From Candidatus Saccharibacteria bacterium oral taxon 488 (GTDB lineage Bacteria; Patescibacteriota; Saccharimonadia; Saccharimonadales; Saccharimonadaceae), in NCBI GenBank assembly GCA_010202845.1, contig CP047921.1:420001-452000 (forward strand): a stretch of 32,000 nt of DNA. Direction: 5' to 3'. The notes beneath the pieces were generated by a model, which was not told the origin of the DNA, did not search any database, and saw nothing but the letters and a program-made list of their open reading frames with translations. Made by a program: the position numbers and the translations under genes. Below, one piece after another: positions 98-7,357 of the stretch. The number at the start of each line of letters is the position of its first letter. Position 1 is the first letter of the stretch.

Positions 98-571
98 TTA
101 TTTTTCTTCGGCTTCTTTCATGCTTCGACGCAGTGGCGTTGCGACTTTCTCAAATGAGCCACCAGCTTTTTCAATCGCTTTGACAACTGAAGCGGAAGCA
201 GCTTGTACTTTCAAGTCAACCTTAGCTTTCAATTCGCCGCGGGCGATCACCTTGACCGTGTGGAACGGCGTGGCGATGTAGCCTTCGGTAAACAGCAATG
301 CGTTGTCGACGGTTTTTCCGTCAAAGGCATTCAAGTGGTCGAGGTAAACTACCTGAGCTGGTGTGCGCAGACTCTTGAAACCGCGAGCTTTTGGTACAGC
401 CTGAGCCAGTGGACGCTGACCGCCCTGGAACATAGCGCGAAGCTTTTTACCAGTGCGGGCGTTCTGACCCTTGGTACCGCGACCAGCAGTTTTACCCTGG
501 CCAGCAGCGATACCGCGGCCAACACGCTTTTTATTCTTGTTTGCTGAAACTTGGAGATCGTTGTATTTCAT
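98..571 (-). CDS. rplO: 50S ribosomal protein L15
   Basis: VGRGIAAGQGKTAGRGTKGQNAR Gly-rich L15 motif. ATG overlaps the rpsE TAA (TAATG). Confidence 0.96.
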   Translation of the reverse strand: MKYNDLQVSANKNKKRVGRGIAAGQGKTAGRGTKGQNARTGKKLRAMFQGGQRPLAQAVPKARGFKSLRTPAQVVYLDHLNAFDGKTVDNALLFTEGYIATPFHTVKVIARGELKAKVDLKVQAASASVVKAIEKAGGSFEKVATPLRRSMKEAEEK

Positions 572-1161
572 TACTTAGCCTCCTTCTTAGCAGCTTTTTT
601 GACTGGCTGAGCGTTGAGCCACTGTTCTCGTGGAACCAATGATTTCAATGCTTCAATGGTTGCGTAGGCGATGTTCACCTTGTTGGTTGAACCAAGCGAC
701 TTGGTGAGCAGATTACGAACACCGGTCACACCGATGATTTGTCGGACAACACCACCAGCGATGATACCAGTACCAGGAGCAGCCGGCTTGATCAGCACGC
801 GAGCGCCTGAGAACTTGACTTCGCTGTCGTGTGGAATGGTCTCGCCGTTGAGCGGCAAAGTGATCAAGTGCTTCTTGGCAACTGAGGTTGCTTTGGCGAC
901 CGCAGCTTGCACGTCGGCGCCTTTGGCTACACCGACACCAACCTTGTCCTTGCGGTTACCGACAACCACCAACGCCTTAAAGCGGAAGCGGCGGCCACCC
1001 TTCACCACGCGGCTCACGCGGTCAATGTTGATTACCAATTCTTCAAACTCTTTTGGTGCGTCATCACGCACATTTCGCCGGTCATCGCGGCGACCACCAC
1101 GCGGACTGCGAGGCCGGCGGCCTTCTGCGCGTGGGGTAGTATTTGCAGCTTGTTCTGCCAT
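571..1161 (-). CDS. rpsE: 30S ribosomal protein S5, with an Arg-rich N-terminal extension
   Basis: DRVSRVVKGGRRFRFKALVVVGN S5 core. I place the start at ATG 1161 (MAEQAANT), 1 nt after the upstream micro-ORF stop (TAGTATG) and preceded by GGAGAG. The ORF track extends to 1188. Confidence 0.95.
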   Translation of the reverse strand: MAEQAANTTPRAEGRRPRSPRGGRRDDRRNVRDDAPKEFEELVINIDRVSRVVKGGRRFRFKALVVVGNRKDKVGVGVAKGADVQAAVAKATSVAKKHLITLPLNGETIPHDSEVKFSGARVLIKPAAPGTGIIAGGVVRQIIGVTGVRNLLTKSLGSTNKVNIAYATIEALKSLVPREQWLNAQPVKKAAKKEAK

Positions 1162-1162
1162 A

Positions 1163-1381
1163 CTAATCCTCTTTCTCTCCTTCTTCAATTCTAACCTTCA
1201 ACTCATGCAAAGCACTTCTAGGATCAATCGCCGCTGCAGCCATGGTGTGCAAGAGACCATCAATCTCACGTTCGACGACCTCACTTGGAGATATGCAGAG
1301 GCCTTTAAAGTTCTCTGGGTCCCACTTGCGCGGGCCAGTGTAATAACGACGCTCAGTTTCTTTTGGTACATCCTTTACCAT
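1163..1381 (-). CDS. 72-aa hypothetical protein embedded between rplR and rpsE
   Basis: MVKDVPKETERRYYTGPRKWDPENFKGLCISPSEVVEREIDGLLHTMAAAAIDPRSALHELKVRIEEGEKED. The heptamer TAGTATG forms both junctions (rplR stop/ORF start and ORF stop/rpsE start). GGAG lies 7 nt upstream. The ORF fills the gap exactly. Confidence 0.7.
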   Translation of the reverse strand: MVKDVPKETERRYYTGPRKWDPENFKGLCISPSEVVEREIDGLLHTMAAAAIDPRSALHELKVRIEEGEKED

Positions 1382-1382
1382 A

Positions 1383-1733
1383 CTAGAACTCCAATCCTTC
1401 TTGGCGCGCAGCATCAGCCAATGCTTTCAAGCGACCAGCGTACTGGCGGCCATTGCGGTCAAAGACTACTGCGCTAATTTTACTCTTCTTTGCTTTCTTG
1501 GCAATTTCCGTACCGATGGCAGCACATTTTTCGCTCATCGTACCTTTTGCTTTGGTGCCAACGGTGGTTGCGGCAGCCAATGTCTTGCCCGCAGTGTCGT
1601 CGATCAGCTGAACACTAACGTGCATATTGCTGATGGTGACTGTCAGGCGTGGGCGCTCCGCAGTACCTGAAACCTTGGCACGAACGCGGTTTTTGCGGAG
1701 AGCGCGGTTGAGTAATTTCTTATTTTCTGCCAT
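1383..1733 (-). CDS. rplR: 50S ribosomal protein L18
   Basis: RLTVTISNMHVSVQLIDD and FDRNGRQYAGRLKALADAAR motifs. Confidence 0.96.
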   Translation of the reverse strand: MAENKKLLNRALRKNRVRAKVSGTAERPRLTVTISNMHVSVQLIDDTAGKTLAAATTVGTKAKGTMSEKCAAIGTEIAKKAKKSKISAVVFDRNGRQYAGRLKALADAARQEGLEF

Positions 1734-1735
1734 GA

Positions 1736-2275
1736 TTACTTACCTGTCTTTCCTGCTTTGCGCAAAATTTGCTCGTCAGCGTACTTGATACCCTTGCCCT
1801 TGTATGGCTCAGGCTTCTTCAGTGCGCGGATTTCCGCAGCAACTTGGCCAACTTGCTGTTTATTGATACCGCTAACGATGATGGTCATCTTTTCGTTGGT
1901 AACGGTGATGCCCTCTGGGGCTTTGTATTTGACTGGGTGTGAAAACCCGAGCGCCATTTCCAGCTCATTGTTACTGGAGCTCACGCGGAAACCGACACCA
2001 TTGACCTCGAGACGTTTCTCGTAGCCTTTGGTAACGCCGATTACCATGTTGTTGATCAGCGCGCGCATCAGACCGTGCTGGGCGCGAGCAGTTTTGGACT
2101 CATCCTTCGGATGAACCGTGACTTGTCCGTCTTCGACTTTCACCTCAACTGCTGGCGTGATGAATTGTGTCAATTCACCTTTCGGGCCCTTTACGACCAC
2201 ATCGCCAGAGTCAACCGTGATTGTCACACCGGCCGGAATAACCACCGGCAGTTTTCCGATTCGACTCAGACTCAT
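1736..2275 (-). CDS. rplF: 50S ribosomal protein L6
   Basis: MSLSRIGKLPVVIPAGV N-terminus and KGKGIKY C-terminal motif. SD AAGGTGA upstream. Confidence 0.96.
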   Translation of the reverse strand: MSLSRIGKLPVVIPAGVTITVDSGDVVVKGPKGELTQFITPAVEVKVEDGQVTVHPKDESKTARAQHGLMRALINNMVIGVTKGYEKRLEVNGVGFRVSSSNNELEMALGFSHPVKYKAPEGITVTNEKMTIIVSGINKQQVGQVAAEIRALKKPEPYKGKGIKYADEQILRKAGKTGK

Positions 2276-2311
2276 TACTCACCTTTCGTGTGATTTGATA
2301 TTAACCCTGGT

Positions 2312-2341
2312 ATTTTAGCATGGATTAGGGGTGAAATGCAA
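2312..2341 (-). promoter_or_regulatory. Candidate sigma70-type promoter for rplF-rplR-orf72-rpsE-rplO
   Basis: Minus strand TTGCAT, 18-nt spacer, TGCTAAAAT (extended -10). It lies about 35 nt upstream of the rplF SD. Confidence 0.5.
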
Positions 2342-2386
2342 GGTATAAGCTCAGTGATATAACGATTCAACTCTCGGGGACTTTGC

Positions 2387-3352
2387 CTACTTTTGAGGAT
2401 CAGTCCCAGCGGCGTTTTTCAAGAAGTCGAACATACGGATGGCCTTAGTGCTGAGTCTCGAGACGGTTTCAATTTTTCCTCCGGCACCCATCAGTTCATC
2501 GCGCCATATCTGCTGACGCTCTTTCATATCTGCCTCTAGCCCGTAAAAGCTTTCCAATACCTTTTCTTCCAAACCGCCAATTTCCTGGATAGATATTGTA
2601 TCAGTTGTAATCTGGATACCCGCTTCATTCAGCTGATCGGAGAGTTCCTCGTTCACAGATTCTGTTAGACCCGATAATACACGTGCAGCCCTCCTAAGTC
2701 CGTCAATTGTTTTGGCGGTAGCGGGCTGTGCGTCATTGTAGCCGACAATTCCATGCTCGTAGCTGCGCCCCATTCCCTTACATTTGAACTGACTGAGAGG
2801 CATTCCCTCCAGATAGGTGCCGAAGGTTAAGTCATATGTAGCGCCATCTCTATCGTGACTCACATCTACTGACGAACCTGCTACTAGATTAAATTCGCGC
2901 ACCTCCTTGAGTTCTTCTTTGAGAAGCCTGTATAGGTCATATTGCTTAGCATCTAAGCCTTTGAATACAAGATCATGCTGACCATCTGCACAATAATGGG
3001 CGAAGGTATTCTGAAGTGATAGCATATGCTCCGTCGGATCACCATTGATCACATCCAGCTCACGATAAGCTTCGCCTATGGTTGAAAAATCCTCCGAAAG
3101 GCCGTATGGTCGAATTTTCTTGGAGTCAAATACCGTTTGCCATAATTCAGTCCGTTTCTGGAAAAGATCATCATAATAGCCATGAATGGCGTTCATTTGA
3201 TCTGGCGTCAGCATCTTGATGTTTAATCCTGGACCCAATGTATTCACGATAGCAGCGGCACTGAGACGATTTGTCGTATCAGTATGATCAATTGGTCTTT
3301 CATGTATCTCAAGACGGCTGTCTTTGTCGTTTGGTTGTGCTAACTCGTGCAT
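2387..3352 (-). CDS. Hypothetical protein, 321 aa, predicted soluble, His/Asp-rich
   Basis: Long ORF with GGGAGA SD and a consensus promoter upstream. I recognise no family motif. Confidence 0.75.
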   Translation of the reverse strand: MHELAQPNDKDSRLEIHERPIDHTDTTNRLSAAAIVNTLGPGLNIKMLTPDQMNAIHGYYDDLFQKRTELWQTVFDSKKIRPYGLSEDFSTIGEAYRELDVINGDPTEHMLSLQNTFAHYCADGQHDLVFKGLDAKQYDLYRLLKEELKEVREFNLVAGSSVDVSHDRDGATYDLTFGTYLEGMPLSQFKCKGMGRSYEHGIVGYNDAQPATAKTIDGLRRAARVLSGLTESVNEELSDQLNEAGIQITTDTISIQEIGGLEEKVLESFYGLEADMKERQQIWRDELMGAGGKIETVSRLSTKAIRMFDFLKNAAGTDPQK

Positions 3353-3409
3353 GTGCTATTCTCCCAAAGAGTGAAAACTCCACTTTAATACAAATTATCT
3401 AGCCTCTCA

Positions 3410-3437
3410 ATTATACTATATGTGTGCCGTATGTCAA
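3410..3437 (-). promoter_or_regulatory. Near-consensus promoter for the 321-aa ORF
   Basis: Minus strand TTGACA, 16-nt spacer, TATAAT. Confidence 0.6.
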
Positions 3438-3549
3438 TATATACACAGTGCCGGTTTATGCTGAAGCTTTACTGACTAACCGCAAATTATTTTGGCAGTT
3501 TACTTACCCATAGGCGCGTATCATGAGGCCATCGGAAGTGTGCTAATAT

Positions 3550-4095
3550 ATGCTTGTGATCTCAAAATACCTCATCGTAAAAATAAGCTTCGTCGTCTTT
3601 TCTGTATCCACGGTGCTACTGTATATTTTGGCGCGCAATGGAACGATGACTGCGGTTTTTGGGCCGATACTAGCTTATGTTGTATACCTGCTCAATTTTG
3701 CGCTGCTTATCGCGTCCACACTTTTCTACATCTGGCAGTGCGCTCACAAAGACACGCCGCAGAGGGATCGCTTGGAGGCACTCGAGACATATGCGCGACT
3801 AGATAATGATGGCCTGTTGATTAGTGGCGCGGTAACTATTATCGAGATTGAGGCGGACAGCTTTTGGCGGCTCAAGGAATATGGCAAGACGATCACTATA
3901 CCTATCAACACCATGAATCCGCTGCGCCTGCCACCGGTGGGCACGCGGGCAACATTCGCGCCGATTGGCAATAAAGACAATCGAGTCATCGGCGTGATTA
4001 CCGAGATAACGAACGGGAGGATAACGGTCACGCCGGCACCGACAACCAAGCCTAGTAGACCGCAACTCACCGCCAAAACCACGACGTCCAACTGA
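3550..4095 (+). CDS. Hypothetical membrane protein, 181 aa: N-terminal TM helices plus a C-terminal beta-rich soluble domain
   Basis: Hydrophobic N-terminal half (FVVFSVSTVLLYIL, VFGPILAYVVYLLNFALLIASTLFYIW). TGCTAATAT (3541-3549) abuts ATG 3550, so GTG 3556 may be a leaderless start. The stop is TGA. Confidence 0.55.
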   Translation: MLVISKYLIVKISFVVFSVSTVLLYILARNGTMTAVFGPILAYVVYLLNFALLIASTLFYIWQCAHKDTPQRDRLEALETYARLDNDGLLISGAVTIIEIEADSFWRLKEYGKTITIPINTMNPLRLPPVGTRATFAPIGNKDNRVIGVITEITNGRITVTPAPTTKPSRPQLTAKTTTSN

Positions 4096-4615
4096 GCGGT
4101 ATCAGCATGAGCAAGGACGCTATCGCTAGCGTGATGTACGCCCCCAGTGCCGGCCGCGTCAACTGTGGCGTGTCATAATGATACACCCGCCGCAGCTCAT
4201 AATAATCCCACAAACGCCATGCACAAATCATTAATAAAACGGCAGAAATGAGCGACAGCATCCCACTAAGCTCAAAATGATACGTTTGATTACTAAAGTT
4301 AACAACAAACATGAACTCCGCCACCGCCAAACACGACCACCATCGCTTATCTCGTTTTAATCCCATTACCGCTACACAAAATCCCAACGGAATGATCAAT
4401 CGCACCACCGGCGTGTAGTCAAAAAATAGCTGCGTGTAATATTCAATCGGATATTTATTATTGCCTGCAGCCGCCACCAACGCACCTACGCCATAAAACA
4501 ATGTTAATAACACGATGGCAAACACAAACAGCCGCAACATATCATTATACAACACATCTCGCAGTGTGATGACGTCAGTTTTAGAAGTAGCGGGAAGCTT
4601 CAGAAACGGGATCAT
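4067..4615 (-). CDS. Hypothetical polytopic membrane protein, 182 aa, about 5 TM segments
   Basis: Repeated 20-aa hydrophobic stretches. Its 3' end overlaps the convergent plus-strand ORF by 29 nt. The stop is TGA. Confidence 0.7.
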   Translation of the reverse strand: MIPFLKLPATSKTDVITLRDVLYNDMLRLFVFAIVLLTLFYGVGALVAAAGNNKYPIEYYTQLFFDYTPVVRLIIPLGFCVAVMGLKRDKRWWSCLAVAEFMFVVNFSNQTYHFELSGMLSLISAVLLMICAWRLWDYYELRRVYHYDTPQLTRPALGAYITLAIASLLMLIPLSWTSWFWR

Positions 4616-4645
4616 TTTTAGCTACCGTTAGTCCGTGGACAGGTC

Positions 4646-4696
4646 CTTATGATTTTTCATAAGAATATCGTAGTTTGTGAGGTCGGTACGTGTCAA
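4646..4696 (-). promoter_or_regulatory. Candidate promoter plus an 18-bp palindrome upstream of the 182-aa membrane gene
   Basis: Minus strand TTGACA (4691-4696), 18-nt spacer, TACGAT (4667-4672), then CTTATGA-AAAA-TCATAAG (4646-4663). Confidence 0.45.
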
Positions 4697-4721
4697 GGCA
4701 ACGGGGCGTTTAGCCGAGAGA

Positions 4722-5327
4722 CTACTTCTCTTTTACCTCGCACCAGCCGTTGTTACCGTTAGGATAGCAGGTGATATCAAGATCCTTGCCGGTAAATTTT
4801 GTAAAGCCAGAATAGCTTACTGTACCCCAATCCTTCTTCGTTCCACCACAACCAACGGAAACTTTTATTTTTTCGCCGATCACGCCCACCATGTCTTTAG
4901 CATCAACGACTGACCGGTCGCTAGTCGGGGTAGTTTTCACCCAACCAGATTCTAGTGTTTCCTCATTCGCTCGTTCCACCCAAGCACCGACGAACTCATT
5001 ACCGTTGGCACAGGTGATTTTCCCGCCGATAGTGACGATGTCTCCTTCTTTCGGCGTAGTCTTTGTCGGACGCGAGGTTGGTTCTGACGGGGACGGCGTC
5101 ACGGTTTCAGTGACGCGTACGGTTTGCGTCGCCCGTGGCGTCTCGGTCGTTTGCGGATGCCTGTTCGTCGTGGTCACGGTAACAGTCGCTGGGGCTGGCT
5201 TGGCGTCCAATCCCGACAGGCCGCAGCCAGAGGCAAACAATGCCACTACGCCCATAAGGCTAGCTAGCGGCCGGTGTAAAACGTTACCAATTTTTTCGCT
5301 GATGGTGTCTGGGGATTTACGAGTCAT
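4722..5327 (-). CDS. Putative lipoprotein with a Thr/Pro-rich linker and a 4-Cys C-terminal domain
   Basis: Signal-like LASLMGVVALFASGC with a lipobox-like ASGC. Linker PATVTVTTTNRHPQTTETPRATQTVRVTETVTPSPSEPTSRPTKTTP. C-terminal domain carries Cys in ITCANG, VGCGG, ITCYP and GWCEV. Confidence 0.7.
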   Translation of the reverse strand: MTRKSPDTISEKIGNVLHRPLASLMGVVALFASGCGLSGLDAKPAPATVTVTTTNRHPQTTETPRATQTVRVTETVTPSPSEPTSRPTKTTPKEGDIVTIGGKITCANGNEFVGAWVERANEETLESGWVKTTPTSDRSVVDAKDMVGVIGEKIKVSVGCGGTKKDWGTVSYSGFTKFTGKDLDITCYPNGNNGWCEVKEK

Positions 5328-5571
5328 GATTATTCCTTTCTTGTGGTTGATTATCTAATAAGTCGCCGGATATTATAGCCTCGTAAATATGCGCTGCGAG
5401 ACCGGCTGCAGCAATTTTATCAACCGTGTCTCCCCTATATTTGCTGCCCTGTTTATTAATCTTGTTAACTTCATTACTTATCATGCAACTGACTCTGTGA
5501 TCTAGCTTCTTTTGAGTAGCGCGTCTCTCTTTTTGGATGTTAGACCACTTAATTTCTCGAGCTGTTTTGAG

Positions 5572-5895
5572 TCAATCACGCACAGCGCTTAGTCTGGCTA
5601 TAGTAGGCCTAATTTTAGCTATTTCACAAGGAGACTTGGGATTTTCAAGTATTTTCTCTAGTTTTACTATACTATCATCAATCTCTGCTATCTTGGTATC
5701 AATGCGATGTACCTCTTCTAGCTTATTTTTATCGTCGATAATCTCGCCAAGCAGAGCCTCAATTGAAGACTGGGCCTCAGGGTCACGATTCTTTGTACTG
5801 CACATATCTTTTATCACTGCTATAGGATGATGCCATAAAATAACCTTACTGGCAAGTAAAACGCTCTTGTGAAATGGCACGTTACCACGAGACAA
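5572..5895 (-). CDS. Hypothetical coiled-coil-like protein, 107 aa from a TTG start; possibly the 5' part of a disrupted 5317-5895 gene
   Basis: The ORF ends at TGA 5572-5574, but the same frame stays open for 84 more codons down to TAA 5317-5319. The start is uncertain: no SD at TTG 5895, and ATG 5805 (MCSTKNRD) is an alternative. Confidence 0.45.
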   Translation of the reverse strand: MSRGNVPFHKSVLLASKVILWHHPIAVIKDMCSTKNRDPEAQSSIEALLGEIIDDKNKLEEVHRIDTKIAEIDDSIVKLEKILENPKSPCEIAKIRPTIARLSAVRD

Positions 5896-5955
5896 TGATT
5901 AGATTTCACATCAGAGGCACAAGAATCCTCCGCCGTGTGCTATAGTAATATCATC

Positions 5956-6414
5956 ATGGATAAGGATTCTATTGAAACGCCGCCAACACCTCAGGGTGCT
6001 ACACCACCACAGAGTGAAGTGCCGCAATCTCAAGACGAAGCAACGAAACCACAAGACAGCACCACAAAGCGACGATGGCTGGCTCGGTTTGTCGATCGTT
6101 TGACGTGGTGGCAGGCGACAGCAATTATCGCCAGTATCTTCGCATTACCACCAGTGGCTGTTGCTGGTGTGATTGATAAGGGAGTGCCGCTTAATGGTTT
6201 TTTCGGTATTTATAATGGTTCATCATTTGATACTATTATTTTCATTCTGTGTTTGCTCGTCACACCACCGTTAAGCCCTCTGTGTGCACTGATGTTTGCT
6301 ACATACTTTGCCACGAGGCGAAAAGACTTAGCCACCCTGAAGCGCATGATGCCAGTCGCGCTAATCGCCTGTATATTTTTAGTTGCCCTGCTGTCTACAC
6401 TGCTGGGGTCTTAG
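5956..6414 (+). CDS. Hypothetical membrane protein with a Pro/Gln/Thr-rich N-terminus and 3-4 TM segments
   Basis: MDKDSIETPPTPQGATPPQSEVPQSQDEATKPQD followed by hydrophobic segments. TGCTATAGT (5938-5946) lies 9 nt before ATG 5956 with no SD. The ORF track starts at GTG 5935. Confidence 0.65.
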   Translation: MDKDSIETPPTPQGATPPQSEVPQSQDEATKPQDSTTKRRWLARFVDRLTWWQATAIIASIFALPPVAVAGVIDKGVPLNGFFGIYNGSSFDTIIFILCLLVTPPLSPLCALMFATYFATRRKDLATLKRMMPVALIACIFLVALLSTLLGS

Positions 6415-6444
6415 CTTGTTGTGCCGATGTATTTGATAGACAAC

Positions 6445-6485
6445 TAAAAGCGCCCGGAGATTATTTTCCCCGAGCGCTTTTTATT
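6445..6485. terminator. Bidirectional hairpin terminator between convergent orf159 and rpsH
   Basis: AAAAGCGCCCGG...CCGAGCGCTTTTTATT. A T-run follows on the plus strand and CTTTTAG on the minus strand. Confidence 0.65.
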
Positions 6486-6501
6486 GCTGACAAAGCGTAA
6501 T

Positions 6502-6923: not shown

Positions 6924-7193
6924 TTACCAACTACTCTTTGTTATGCCTGGGATTTCACCCTTGGCTGCTTTTTCGCGGAAATTGATGCGGCTCAGACCAA
7001 ACTGGCGCATATAGCCGCGTGGACGGCCGGAAATGCTGTCGCGGTTCTTGTGCCTGGTTGGGCTCGAGTTGCGAGGCAATTTCTGCAAACCGTCGAGGTC
7101 GCCAAGTTCTTTCAATTTAGCGCGTTTGGCTGCAAACTTAGCTATCATCTTCAGGCGCTTTTTGTCGCGAGCGACCATTGATTTCTTAGCCAT
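6924..7193 (-). CDS. rpsN: 30S ribosomal protein S14, long form without the zinc-binding Cys motif
   Basis: [14 protein letters not shown]-terminus and [28 protein letters not shown]-terminus. GGAGGT SD 9 nt upstream. Confidence 0.95.
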
Positions 7194-7357
7194 TAATCAT
7201 TACCTCCGTCTAACTCAACTGTACGCTCATCATCTGGGATGCCCCAACCTTCTTGCTCGGGTGTCCAGTCCTCTGGATCAATCGCACCCCAACCTTCCTG
7301 TTCAGGTGTCCAGTCTGCATAGTGTTCACGATTGAGGCTATTAATAGTTTCGCTCAT
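7193..7357 (-). CDS. 54-aa acidic Trp-repeat micro-protein between rplE and rpsN, absent from the ORF track
   Basis: Hand translation gives [59 protein letters not shown] overlaps occur at both ends. AAAGGAGGTG SD lies 7 nt upstream. The internal repeat differs only at synonymous sites. Confidence 0.75.

Follow-up and report, generated by a model that had tools for sequence, protein, structure and literature searches.

The question raised by this locus is what a 72-aa open reading frame, hereafter X, is doing between rplR (L18) and rpsE (S5), inside a ribosomal protein operon. Such operons are regarded as the most stable gene arrays of bacteria and are used to anchor phylogenies, above all in the CPR. 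The window, i.e., the entire 32,000-nt stretch of DNA analyzed, comes from an oral Candidatus Nanosynbacter (Saccharibacteria/TM7) and contains its S10-spc ribosomal protein cluster on the minus strand, with the local gene order L6, L18, X, S5, and L15 (Table 1).

The first-pass annotation, made from the nucleotide sequence, described X as filling the interval between the two genes exactly, and the boundaries agree with this description: the L18 stop codon occupies positions 1385-1383, X extends over 1163-1381, and S5 starts at 1161. Both copies of the heptamer TAGTATG were found where they had been placed (1379-1385 and 1159-1165), as was GGAG 7 nt before the ATG of X (1389-1392). At either end of X, a stop and a start codon on the same strand are one base apart (TAG-T-ATG), and the exact direct repeat flanking X comprises 8 nt (TAGTATGG) with a spacing of 220 nt. 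Methionine at position 1381 was correctly taken as the coupled start. The alternative 83-aa reading takes its start from an ATG further upstream, which lies within the 3' end of L18 in the +1 frame; since this ATG is also present in L002, an uninserted relative, where it is in frame with S5, the 83-aa ORF is a gene-calling artifact. Inspection of L002 also showed GGAG located likewise 7 nt before the S5 ATG. Judged by its junctions, X has the anatomy of a gene that is probably translationally coupled on both sides.

Table 1. Coordinates of X, its junctions and neighboring genes in the window, and of other junction inserts
Feature	Sequence	Coordinates	Strand	Remarks
rplF (L6)	Window	1736..2275	-	
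rplR (L18)	Window	1383..1733	-	116 aa; Pfam Ribosomal_L18p, E = 8e-37; stop TAG 1385-1383; GGAG for X in 3' end
GGAG, Shine-Dalgarno-like	Window	1389..1392	-	7 nt 5' of X ATG, inside L18
Junction copy 1, TAGTATGG	Window	1378..1385	-	L18 stop, one spacer base, X start
X, 72-codon ORF (stop included)	Window	1163..1381	-	ATG 1381-1379; stop TAG 1165-1163
Variable 5' part of X	Window	1247..1381	-	ORF nt 1-135; 27/30 variant alleles
Conserved 3' part of X	Window	1166..1246	-	ORF nt 136-216; 3 variant alleles; encodes second predicted helix
Second GGAG, putative replacement Shine-Dalgarno from insert	Window	1177..1180	-	3' end of X
GAGG, putative replacement Shine-Dalgarno from insert	Window	1168..1171	-	6 nt 5' of S5 ATG
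Junction copy 2, TAGTATGG	Window	1158..1165	-	X stop, one spacer base, S5 start
rpsE (S5)	Window	571..1161	-	196 aa; Pfam Ribosomal_S5 and S5_C
L15	Window	98..571	-	
54-aa ORF	Window	7193..7357	-	Between L5 and S14; TAATG on both sides; independent insertion
92-aa family (87-94 aa)	L078	855-1133		L18/S5 junction, other Saccharibacteria
92-aa family (87-94 aa)	L095	3001-3264		L18/S5 junction, other Saccharibacteria
92-aa family (87-94 aa)	L096	128-406		L18/S5 junction, other Saccharibacteria
Hydrophobic peptide ORF, 35-36 aa (MDNLAMWLLPVV...)	L074	2655-2762		Between L24 and L5
Hydrophobic peptide ORF, 35-36 aa (MDNLAMWLLPVV...)	L079	1953-2060		Between L24 and L5

A ribosomal protein gene to which X can be compared is uL30 (rpmD), a small gene usually located next to rpsE in spc operons and known to be missing in CPR bacteria. 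Like rpmD, X is a small ORF adjoining rpsE, but it is upstream rather than downstream of this gene, is strain-variable, and has no Pfam match at E ≤ 1. No rpmD gene separates S5 from L15, the stop codon of the former overlapping the start of the latter (window positions 571-573), which rules out X as a displaced L30. Consistent with this, no Ribosomal_L30 signal was obtained for X (no Pfam family at E ≤ 1 and no PDB sequence match).

For comparative analysis, the S5 neighborhood was taken from 80 species-representative genomes, and the operon proteins were mapped onto each of them. X was absent from all 80 species representatives. A single TAGTATG directly joins L18 to S5 in all 78 uninserted Nanosynbacter representatives (78/78), which bears out the earlier statement that the two genes are normally adjacent and indicates that the window carries a 220-nt insertion duplicating the junction rather than a chance arrangement. 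Alignment of carriers with non-carriers revealed one clean gap of 220 nt, and the insert consists of about 213 nt of extra sequence plus the second junction copy (220 = 7 + 213).

A search of 5.8 billion proteins with X returned only six clusters (83-99% identity), five of them with a length of 72 aa and one called at 83 aa. The contigs of these clusters, supplemented by two from a metagenome scan, gave 14 independent loci and eight distinct DNA haplotypes of X, the window included; the haplotypes come from oral metagenomes. All 14 contigs have the arrangement L18-TAGTATG-X-TAGTATG-S5, and X was found at no other site. No further copy was detected in the window or in related loci (about 1 Mb of sequence). 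Ranked by nucleotide distance over S5 and L15, the carriers are interspersed with non-carriers; most have non-carriers among their closest relatives, and for L081, L090, and L091 the nearest relatives are non-carriers. X is a strain-variable insertion polymorphism of some oral Nanosynbacter (TM7) strains. The expectation that the ORF would be conserved in relatives at the rplR/rpsE junction did not hold, with X in 0 of 80 species representatives and an amino acid sequence that is close to neutral in its evolution. In haplotype L081 the flanking repeat reaches 10 nt (TAGTATGGCA), and removal of the 3-nt insertion from L084 would give a repeat of 12 nt (TAGTATGGCAGA), the latter read by eye rather than computed. 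Given these longer repeats in other haplotypes, the junction duplication may originally have reached the first codons of S5.

By sequence comparison X is an apparent orphan, with homologues undetectable in all libraries searched. It had no match at E ≤ 1 in Pfam, PHROGs, NCBIfam, PADLOC, or PDB sequences, and no match in collections of phages, plasmids, and viral contigs (IMG/VR). A profile search against 1.84 billion representatives recovered, besides X itself, no more than three long repeat proteins, which were judged spurious because their scores add up 4-12 weak stretches. One of these, P0008, is a 419-aa "protein" built of alternating LQWGPASFAGMC and ASMGPGFVRRDV units with variable spacers between them; its match to X is confined to the short motif WGP..F.G.C, and it looks like a translated DNA repeat array.

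An origin of X as a tandem duplicate of the L18 3' end or the S5 5' end fits the register (220 = 7 + 213), but the similarity is absent. Neither DNA nor protein comparison of X with L18, S5, and L6 gave similarity above codon-shuffle controls, which argues against a diverged tandem duplicate of its neighbors; a 31-nt repeat of 71% identity, considered as a trace of duplication, was within chance. Terminal inverted repeats were not found on X either, the only pair of arms (9 nt, 89%) being located away from the insert termini.

The eight haplotypes of X contain 30 variant alleles, 23 nonsynonymous and 7 synonymous, versus a neutral expectation of 21:9 obtained by mutating the consensus at random under the observed ratio of transitions to transversions. 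Since 9 synonymous changes were expected and 7 observed, nonsynonymous changes in X are not depleted. Over codon positions 1, 2, and 3 the variants are distributed as 11:11:8. Among five representative carriers, the Nei-Gojobori dN/dS of X was 0.44-0.76, with one pair at 3.4, versus 0.03-0.12 for L18 and S5 of the same contigs; the ratios for X are inflated among very close alleles and the variants number only 30, which leaves room for weak purifying selection. The amino acid sequence of X evolves about neutrally, and purifying selection on it was not detected. Nothing in the data indicates that X is a new ribosomal protein or a conserved protein of another kind.

No coding constraint was found in any other frame of X, on either strand, in the eight haplotypes. 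The alternative readings of the insert as a real gene, namely the antisense frame and a 57-aa ORF on the same strand, were rejected, as both are without constraint and without a significant Pfam match. An antisense ORF of 268 codons (window positions 671-1477, plus strand) crosses S5, X, and L18; within X its frame is open in all eight haplotypes, and it is probably a compositional artifact of purine-rich codons. Adenine-specific mutagenesis of the DGR type was also rejected, the variant spectrum of X not being adenine-specific.

With regard to frameshifts, tolerance of which had been named as evidence against X being a gene, the frame has been kept, at limited statistical power. It is intact in 8 of 8 haplotypes, and the two indels seen are each 3 nt long and compensate each other in one haplotype, within the variable 5' part. 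Matches in the protein databases cover 99-100% of the query, and so no truncated alleles of X were seen. These data support frame maintenance only modestly, because the variants were expected to include just 0.7 stop-creating mutations and because most carriers were retrieved by protein search, which favors intact copies. The W-x-P-E motif noted in X is likewise present, as W-x-P-E-N, in all variants; its retention says little, since the variants are at least 83% identical. The codon-position base composition of X is coding-like (GC1 0.59, GC2 0.38, GC3 0.45).

AlphaFold2, run with a shallow alignment, predicted a disordered N-terminus followed by helices at residues 32-49 and 54-71, forming a helical hairpin. 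The mean pLDDT was 71.5 and the pTM 0.38, with block-mean pLDDT of 80-85 over residues 31-70. A Foldseek search of the predicted structure against PDB gave no match. The predicted helices, the intact frames with both indels in register, the coding-like composition, and the near invariance of residues 46-72 would suit a functional accessory micro-protein that combines a conserved hairpin at its C-terminus with a disordered N-terminal part evolving fast and possibly diversifying. The movement of X alleles through diverged backgrounds, described below, would possibly reflect an advantage conferred by such a protein. Placed in this operon it would be expressed at a very high level and might be associated with the ribosome or take part in the interaction of the epibiont with its host. 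This is the main rival of the reading that we prefer, and we regard it as unlikely although worth keeping in view: an excess of synonymous changes is found nowhere in X, the ORF is rare (none of the 80 species representatives), it has neither a homologue nor a fold match in the databases searched, the pTM is only 0.38, and the conservation of the 3' third appears to concern nucleotides rather than amino acids.

The last point follows from the distribution of the variants, of which 27 of 30 fall into ORF nt 1-135, evenly distributed over codon positions, and 3 into nt 136-216 (binomial P = 0.0008). In the latter segment no synonymous changes were found, while about 4 were expected from the 5' rate; since synonymous sites are frozen too, the conservation acts at the nucleotide level. 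These 81 nt at the 3' end of X are purine-rich, carry the motifs GGAG and GAGG, and, together with the S5 start, are less structured than shuffled sequence (fold z = +1.03). They are probably conserved as the new translation-initiation region of S5, and constraint on the second peptide helix may also be a cause.

An unconstrained protein sequence combined with a 3' part conserved at the nucleotide level would also be expected if the insert were an untranslated spacer or a cis-regulatory RNA in which the ORF is incidental. However, the insert has no stable fold (z = +0.46; +1.03 for the 3' part with the S5 start), no match in Rfam, and no promoter or terminator was found inside it upon search. 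Moreover, the frame opens precisely at the putative re-initiation ATG and closes with a stop codon that a single base separates from the S5 ATG. Since about 3% of random 71-codon stretches are open, such an exact frame in X and in three other independent inserts described below is very unlikely to be due to chance, and we consider a spacer or RNA very improbable.

The divergence of X was compared with that of its flanks. Synonymous divergence (dS) of X was 0.02-0.11 versus 0.18-0.36 for the flanking genes of the same contigs. Ten pairs of carriers have identical X (ORF nt 31-219), while their S5 and L15 genes are up to 11% apart, and between L086 and L089 the tract of near identity covers only about 300-400 nt centered on X. 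Being neutral yet less diverged than the synonymous sites of its flanks, X is not as old as the strains that carry it. Its low divergence and the identical copies in diverged backgrounds point to recent movement between backgrounds, for which homologous recombination through the conserved ribosomal flanks is the most plausible route.

The insertion anatomy, the patchy distribution, the near-neutral substitution, the low diversity relative to the flanks, and the lack of homologues in the libraries searched are the observations on which our preferred reading is based. We consider it somewhat more probable than not that X is a young, recombination-spread, strain-variable passenger or relay ORF, for which translation matters and the product does not. 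An orphan DNA segment of ~213 nt would have been inserted into the translation-initiation region of rpsE in one oral Candidatus Nanosynbacter lineage, and the insertion would have duplicated the TAGTATG(G) stop-start junction. X would then start where S5 formerly did, 7 nt downstream of the GGAG borne by L18, and would most likely be translated by termination-reinitiation after L18. The 3' end of X would supply GAGG 6 nt upstream of the S5 ATG and the re-created stop-T-ATG, thereby handing ribosomes over to S5. Selection on S5 expression would act on the open frame and on the purine-rich, unstructured 3' 81 nt, and not detectably on the amino acids. From its lineage of origin, the insert would have spread among diverged strains by homologous recombination via the conserved ribosomal flanks.

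A second small ORF of 54 aa lies in the same cluster between L5 and S14. The first-pass annotation pointed to the short motif W-x-P-E-[NQ] common to both, a similarity that it said could be chance; if real, it would make X and this ORF two members of a single small-protein family within the spc operon. BLASTP gave E = 0.32 in a single pairwise comparison, and the profile-profile comparison with hhalign gave a probability of 1.4%. In addition, the junction motifs differ (TAGTATG for X, TAATG for the 54-aa ORF), as do the sets of carriers. At the level of detectable sequence similarity the one-family reading is refuted, and we give it practically no credence; as far as the sequences can tell, the two ORFs have a common architecture and not a common ancestry. 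TAATG is the native L5/S14 junction in 38 of 38 uninserted relatives. Of the species representatives, 42 have a flank extending to S14, and one of these carries the 54-aa ORF; it also occurs in numerous metagenome contigs, each time at the L5/S14 site. The ORF includes a tandem repeat of 45 nt, and in an allele of 39 aa one of the 15-residue repeats is missing. Nucleotide diversity was 0.3% in the ORF versus 3.6% in its flanks, i.e., about 12-fold lower.

Other inserts of this architecture were found in related loci. At the same L18/S5 junction, L078 carries a 92-aa ORF that is unrelated to X and has TAGTATG on both sides; kinship of the two was rejected (BLASTP E = 3.7, hhalign probability 0.3%). 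The 92-aa family comprises 14 clusters with 61-100% identity, and the three members with examined context are all located at the L18/S5 junction. Its dN/dS is about 1.0, with variants over codon positions distributed as 24:21:12, and its dS is 0.18 versus 1.2 for the flanking S5. The first ~75 nt are almost identical between lineages in which L18 identity is only 52-75% over most of the gene. In L095 the flanking repeat is a perfect 15-mer, GGAGTTTTAGTATGG, that includes the Shine-Dalgarno motif. The fourth insert encodes a hydrophobic peptide of 36 aa, putatively membrane-located, between L24 and L5. Unlike X, it is under purifying selection (dN/dS 0.125), and its junctions are of the TAGTATG type, versus TAATG at L24/L5 in 32 of 32 uninserted relatives. 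All four insert types have GGAG or GAGG at their end, at a distance of 6-10 nt from the start codon that follows. Where compared (X, the 92-aa family, and the 54-aa ORF), the inserts are less diverged than their flanks. Each of these three was found at one locus only, and hopping between junctions is therefore not supported.

The recurrence of unrelated micro-ORFs at coupled junctions is a more interesting finding than X itself, and no description of such junction inserts was found in the searchable literature. It could result from survivorship, if an essential operon retains only those insertions by which coupling is restored, or from an insertion process that duplicates initiation regions. 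In the latter case, X would be the product of a site-directed process or a minimal mobile element colonizing the stop-start junctions of ribosomal operons and duplicating the downstream initiation region. Such a process would explain why four unrelated ORFs (X, the 92-aa ORF, the 36-aa peptide, and the 54-aa ORF) have one stop-start motif on both sides and a terminal Shine-Dalgarno of their own, why the repeat extends to 10-15 nt in some haplotypes, how the 36-aa ORF came to have junctions of a type different from that of its uninserted relatives, and why three of the inserts are much less diverged than their flanks. Against it are the single locus of X, of the 54-aa ORF, and of the 92-aa family, the absence of terminal inverted repeats from X, and the fact that the inserts encode no enzyme and share no sequence; survivorship in an essential operon could give the same pattern. 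We consider a site-directed or mobile origin of X quite unlikely.

A broader proposal, which we hold to be doubtful but slightly less so, is that oral Saccharibacteria harbor a class of minimal insertions at S10-spc stop-start junctions, with four independent examples, each duplicating the initiation region of the gene downstream, equipped with its own Shine-Dalgarno, riding on translational coupling, and spreading between strains faster than the surrounding genes diverge. The members of this class would be either selfish coupling parasites or micro-proteins that are specific to strains and expressed at very high levels, some of which would be associated with the ribosome.

Several other irregularities of the ribosomal operon were observed in the same set of loci. 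L076 has a 91-nt spacer between S5 and L15 (positions 1487-1577), while all other loci have an overlapping TAATG; the spacer contains a 17-codon ORF and a short run of TCATTCA-type repeats and is not in the exact junction register. In the window, a block of orphan genes of ~4.2 kb on both strands (2276-6501) separates rpsH (S8) from rplF (L6) in the spc operon, and these genes had no significant Pfam match. Across related loci reaching S8, the length of the S8-L6 gap lies between about 0.1 and about 6 kb, and in other strains the gap contains genes for a zeta toxin, a HU-HIG protein, and Ham1-like and CYTH proteins. The block appears to be a hypervariable island splitting the ribosomal operon. 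Apparent single-base frameshifts were seen in rpsN of L053 (about 838-1131; CP076459, Ca. Minimicrobia vallesae) and in rplE of L042 (about 300-534; OX335598); both are complete assemblies, and the frameshifts, which could be mistaken for junction insertions, are probably sequencing errors.

Translational coupling by termination-reinitiation at overlapping or nearly overlapping stop and start codons has been reviewed (PMC12548453) and surveyed (PMC6728339). X resembles coupled gene pairs in that its stop and start codons are one base apart at the junctions, with a Shine-Dalgarno-like motif 6-7 nt upstream in the preceding ORF, and the anatomy of its junctions is that of the native L18/S5 junction. 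It differs from them in being an extra ORF spliced into an existing junction, without detectable constraint at the protein level, and in re-creating the junction on both sides in only some strains. With lineage-restricted orphan small ORFs and young accessory genes it shares the occurrence in a narrow clade, a dN/dS near 1, and a patchy distribution. Unlike these, X sits in one of the most highly conserved operons in base-pair-exact register, and its diversity is several-fold below that of its flanks, implying that it spread horizontally in recent times. Insertions of the MITE or IS type are similarly short, non-autonomous, and flanked by a direct repeat, of 7-8 nt in the case of X; however, X has no terminal inverted repeats and occupies a single locus in all genomes seen, and its flanking repeat falls exactly on a functional stop-start signal, which selection would re-establish in any case.

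In a genome-reduced epibiont, base-exact coupled junctions of a ribosomal operon can take in foreign micro-ORFs, and such inserts move between strains. If X has to be translated only so that ribosomes are passed on to S5, it would be a natural instance of an ORF kept by selection on the act of translation rather than on the product, a case that would bear on gene birth and on the annotation of small ORFs in metagenomes. If, on the contrary, X and its analogues are functional, few strain-specific proteins of these organisms would be expressed more highly.
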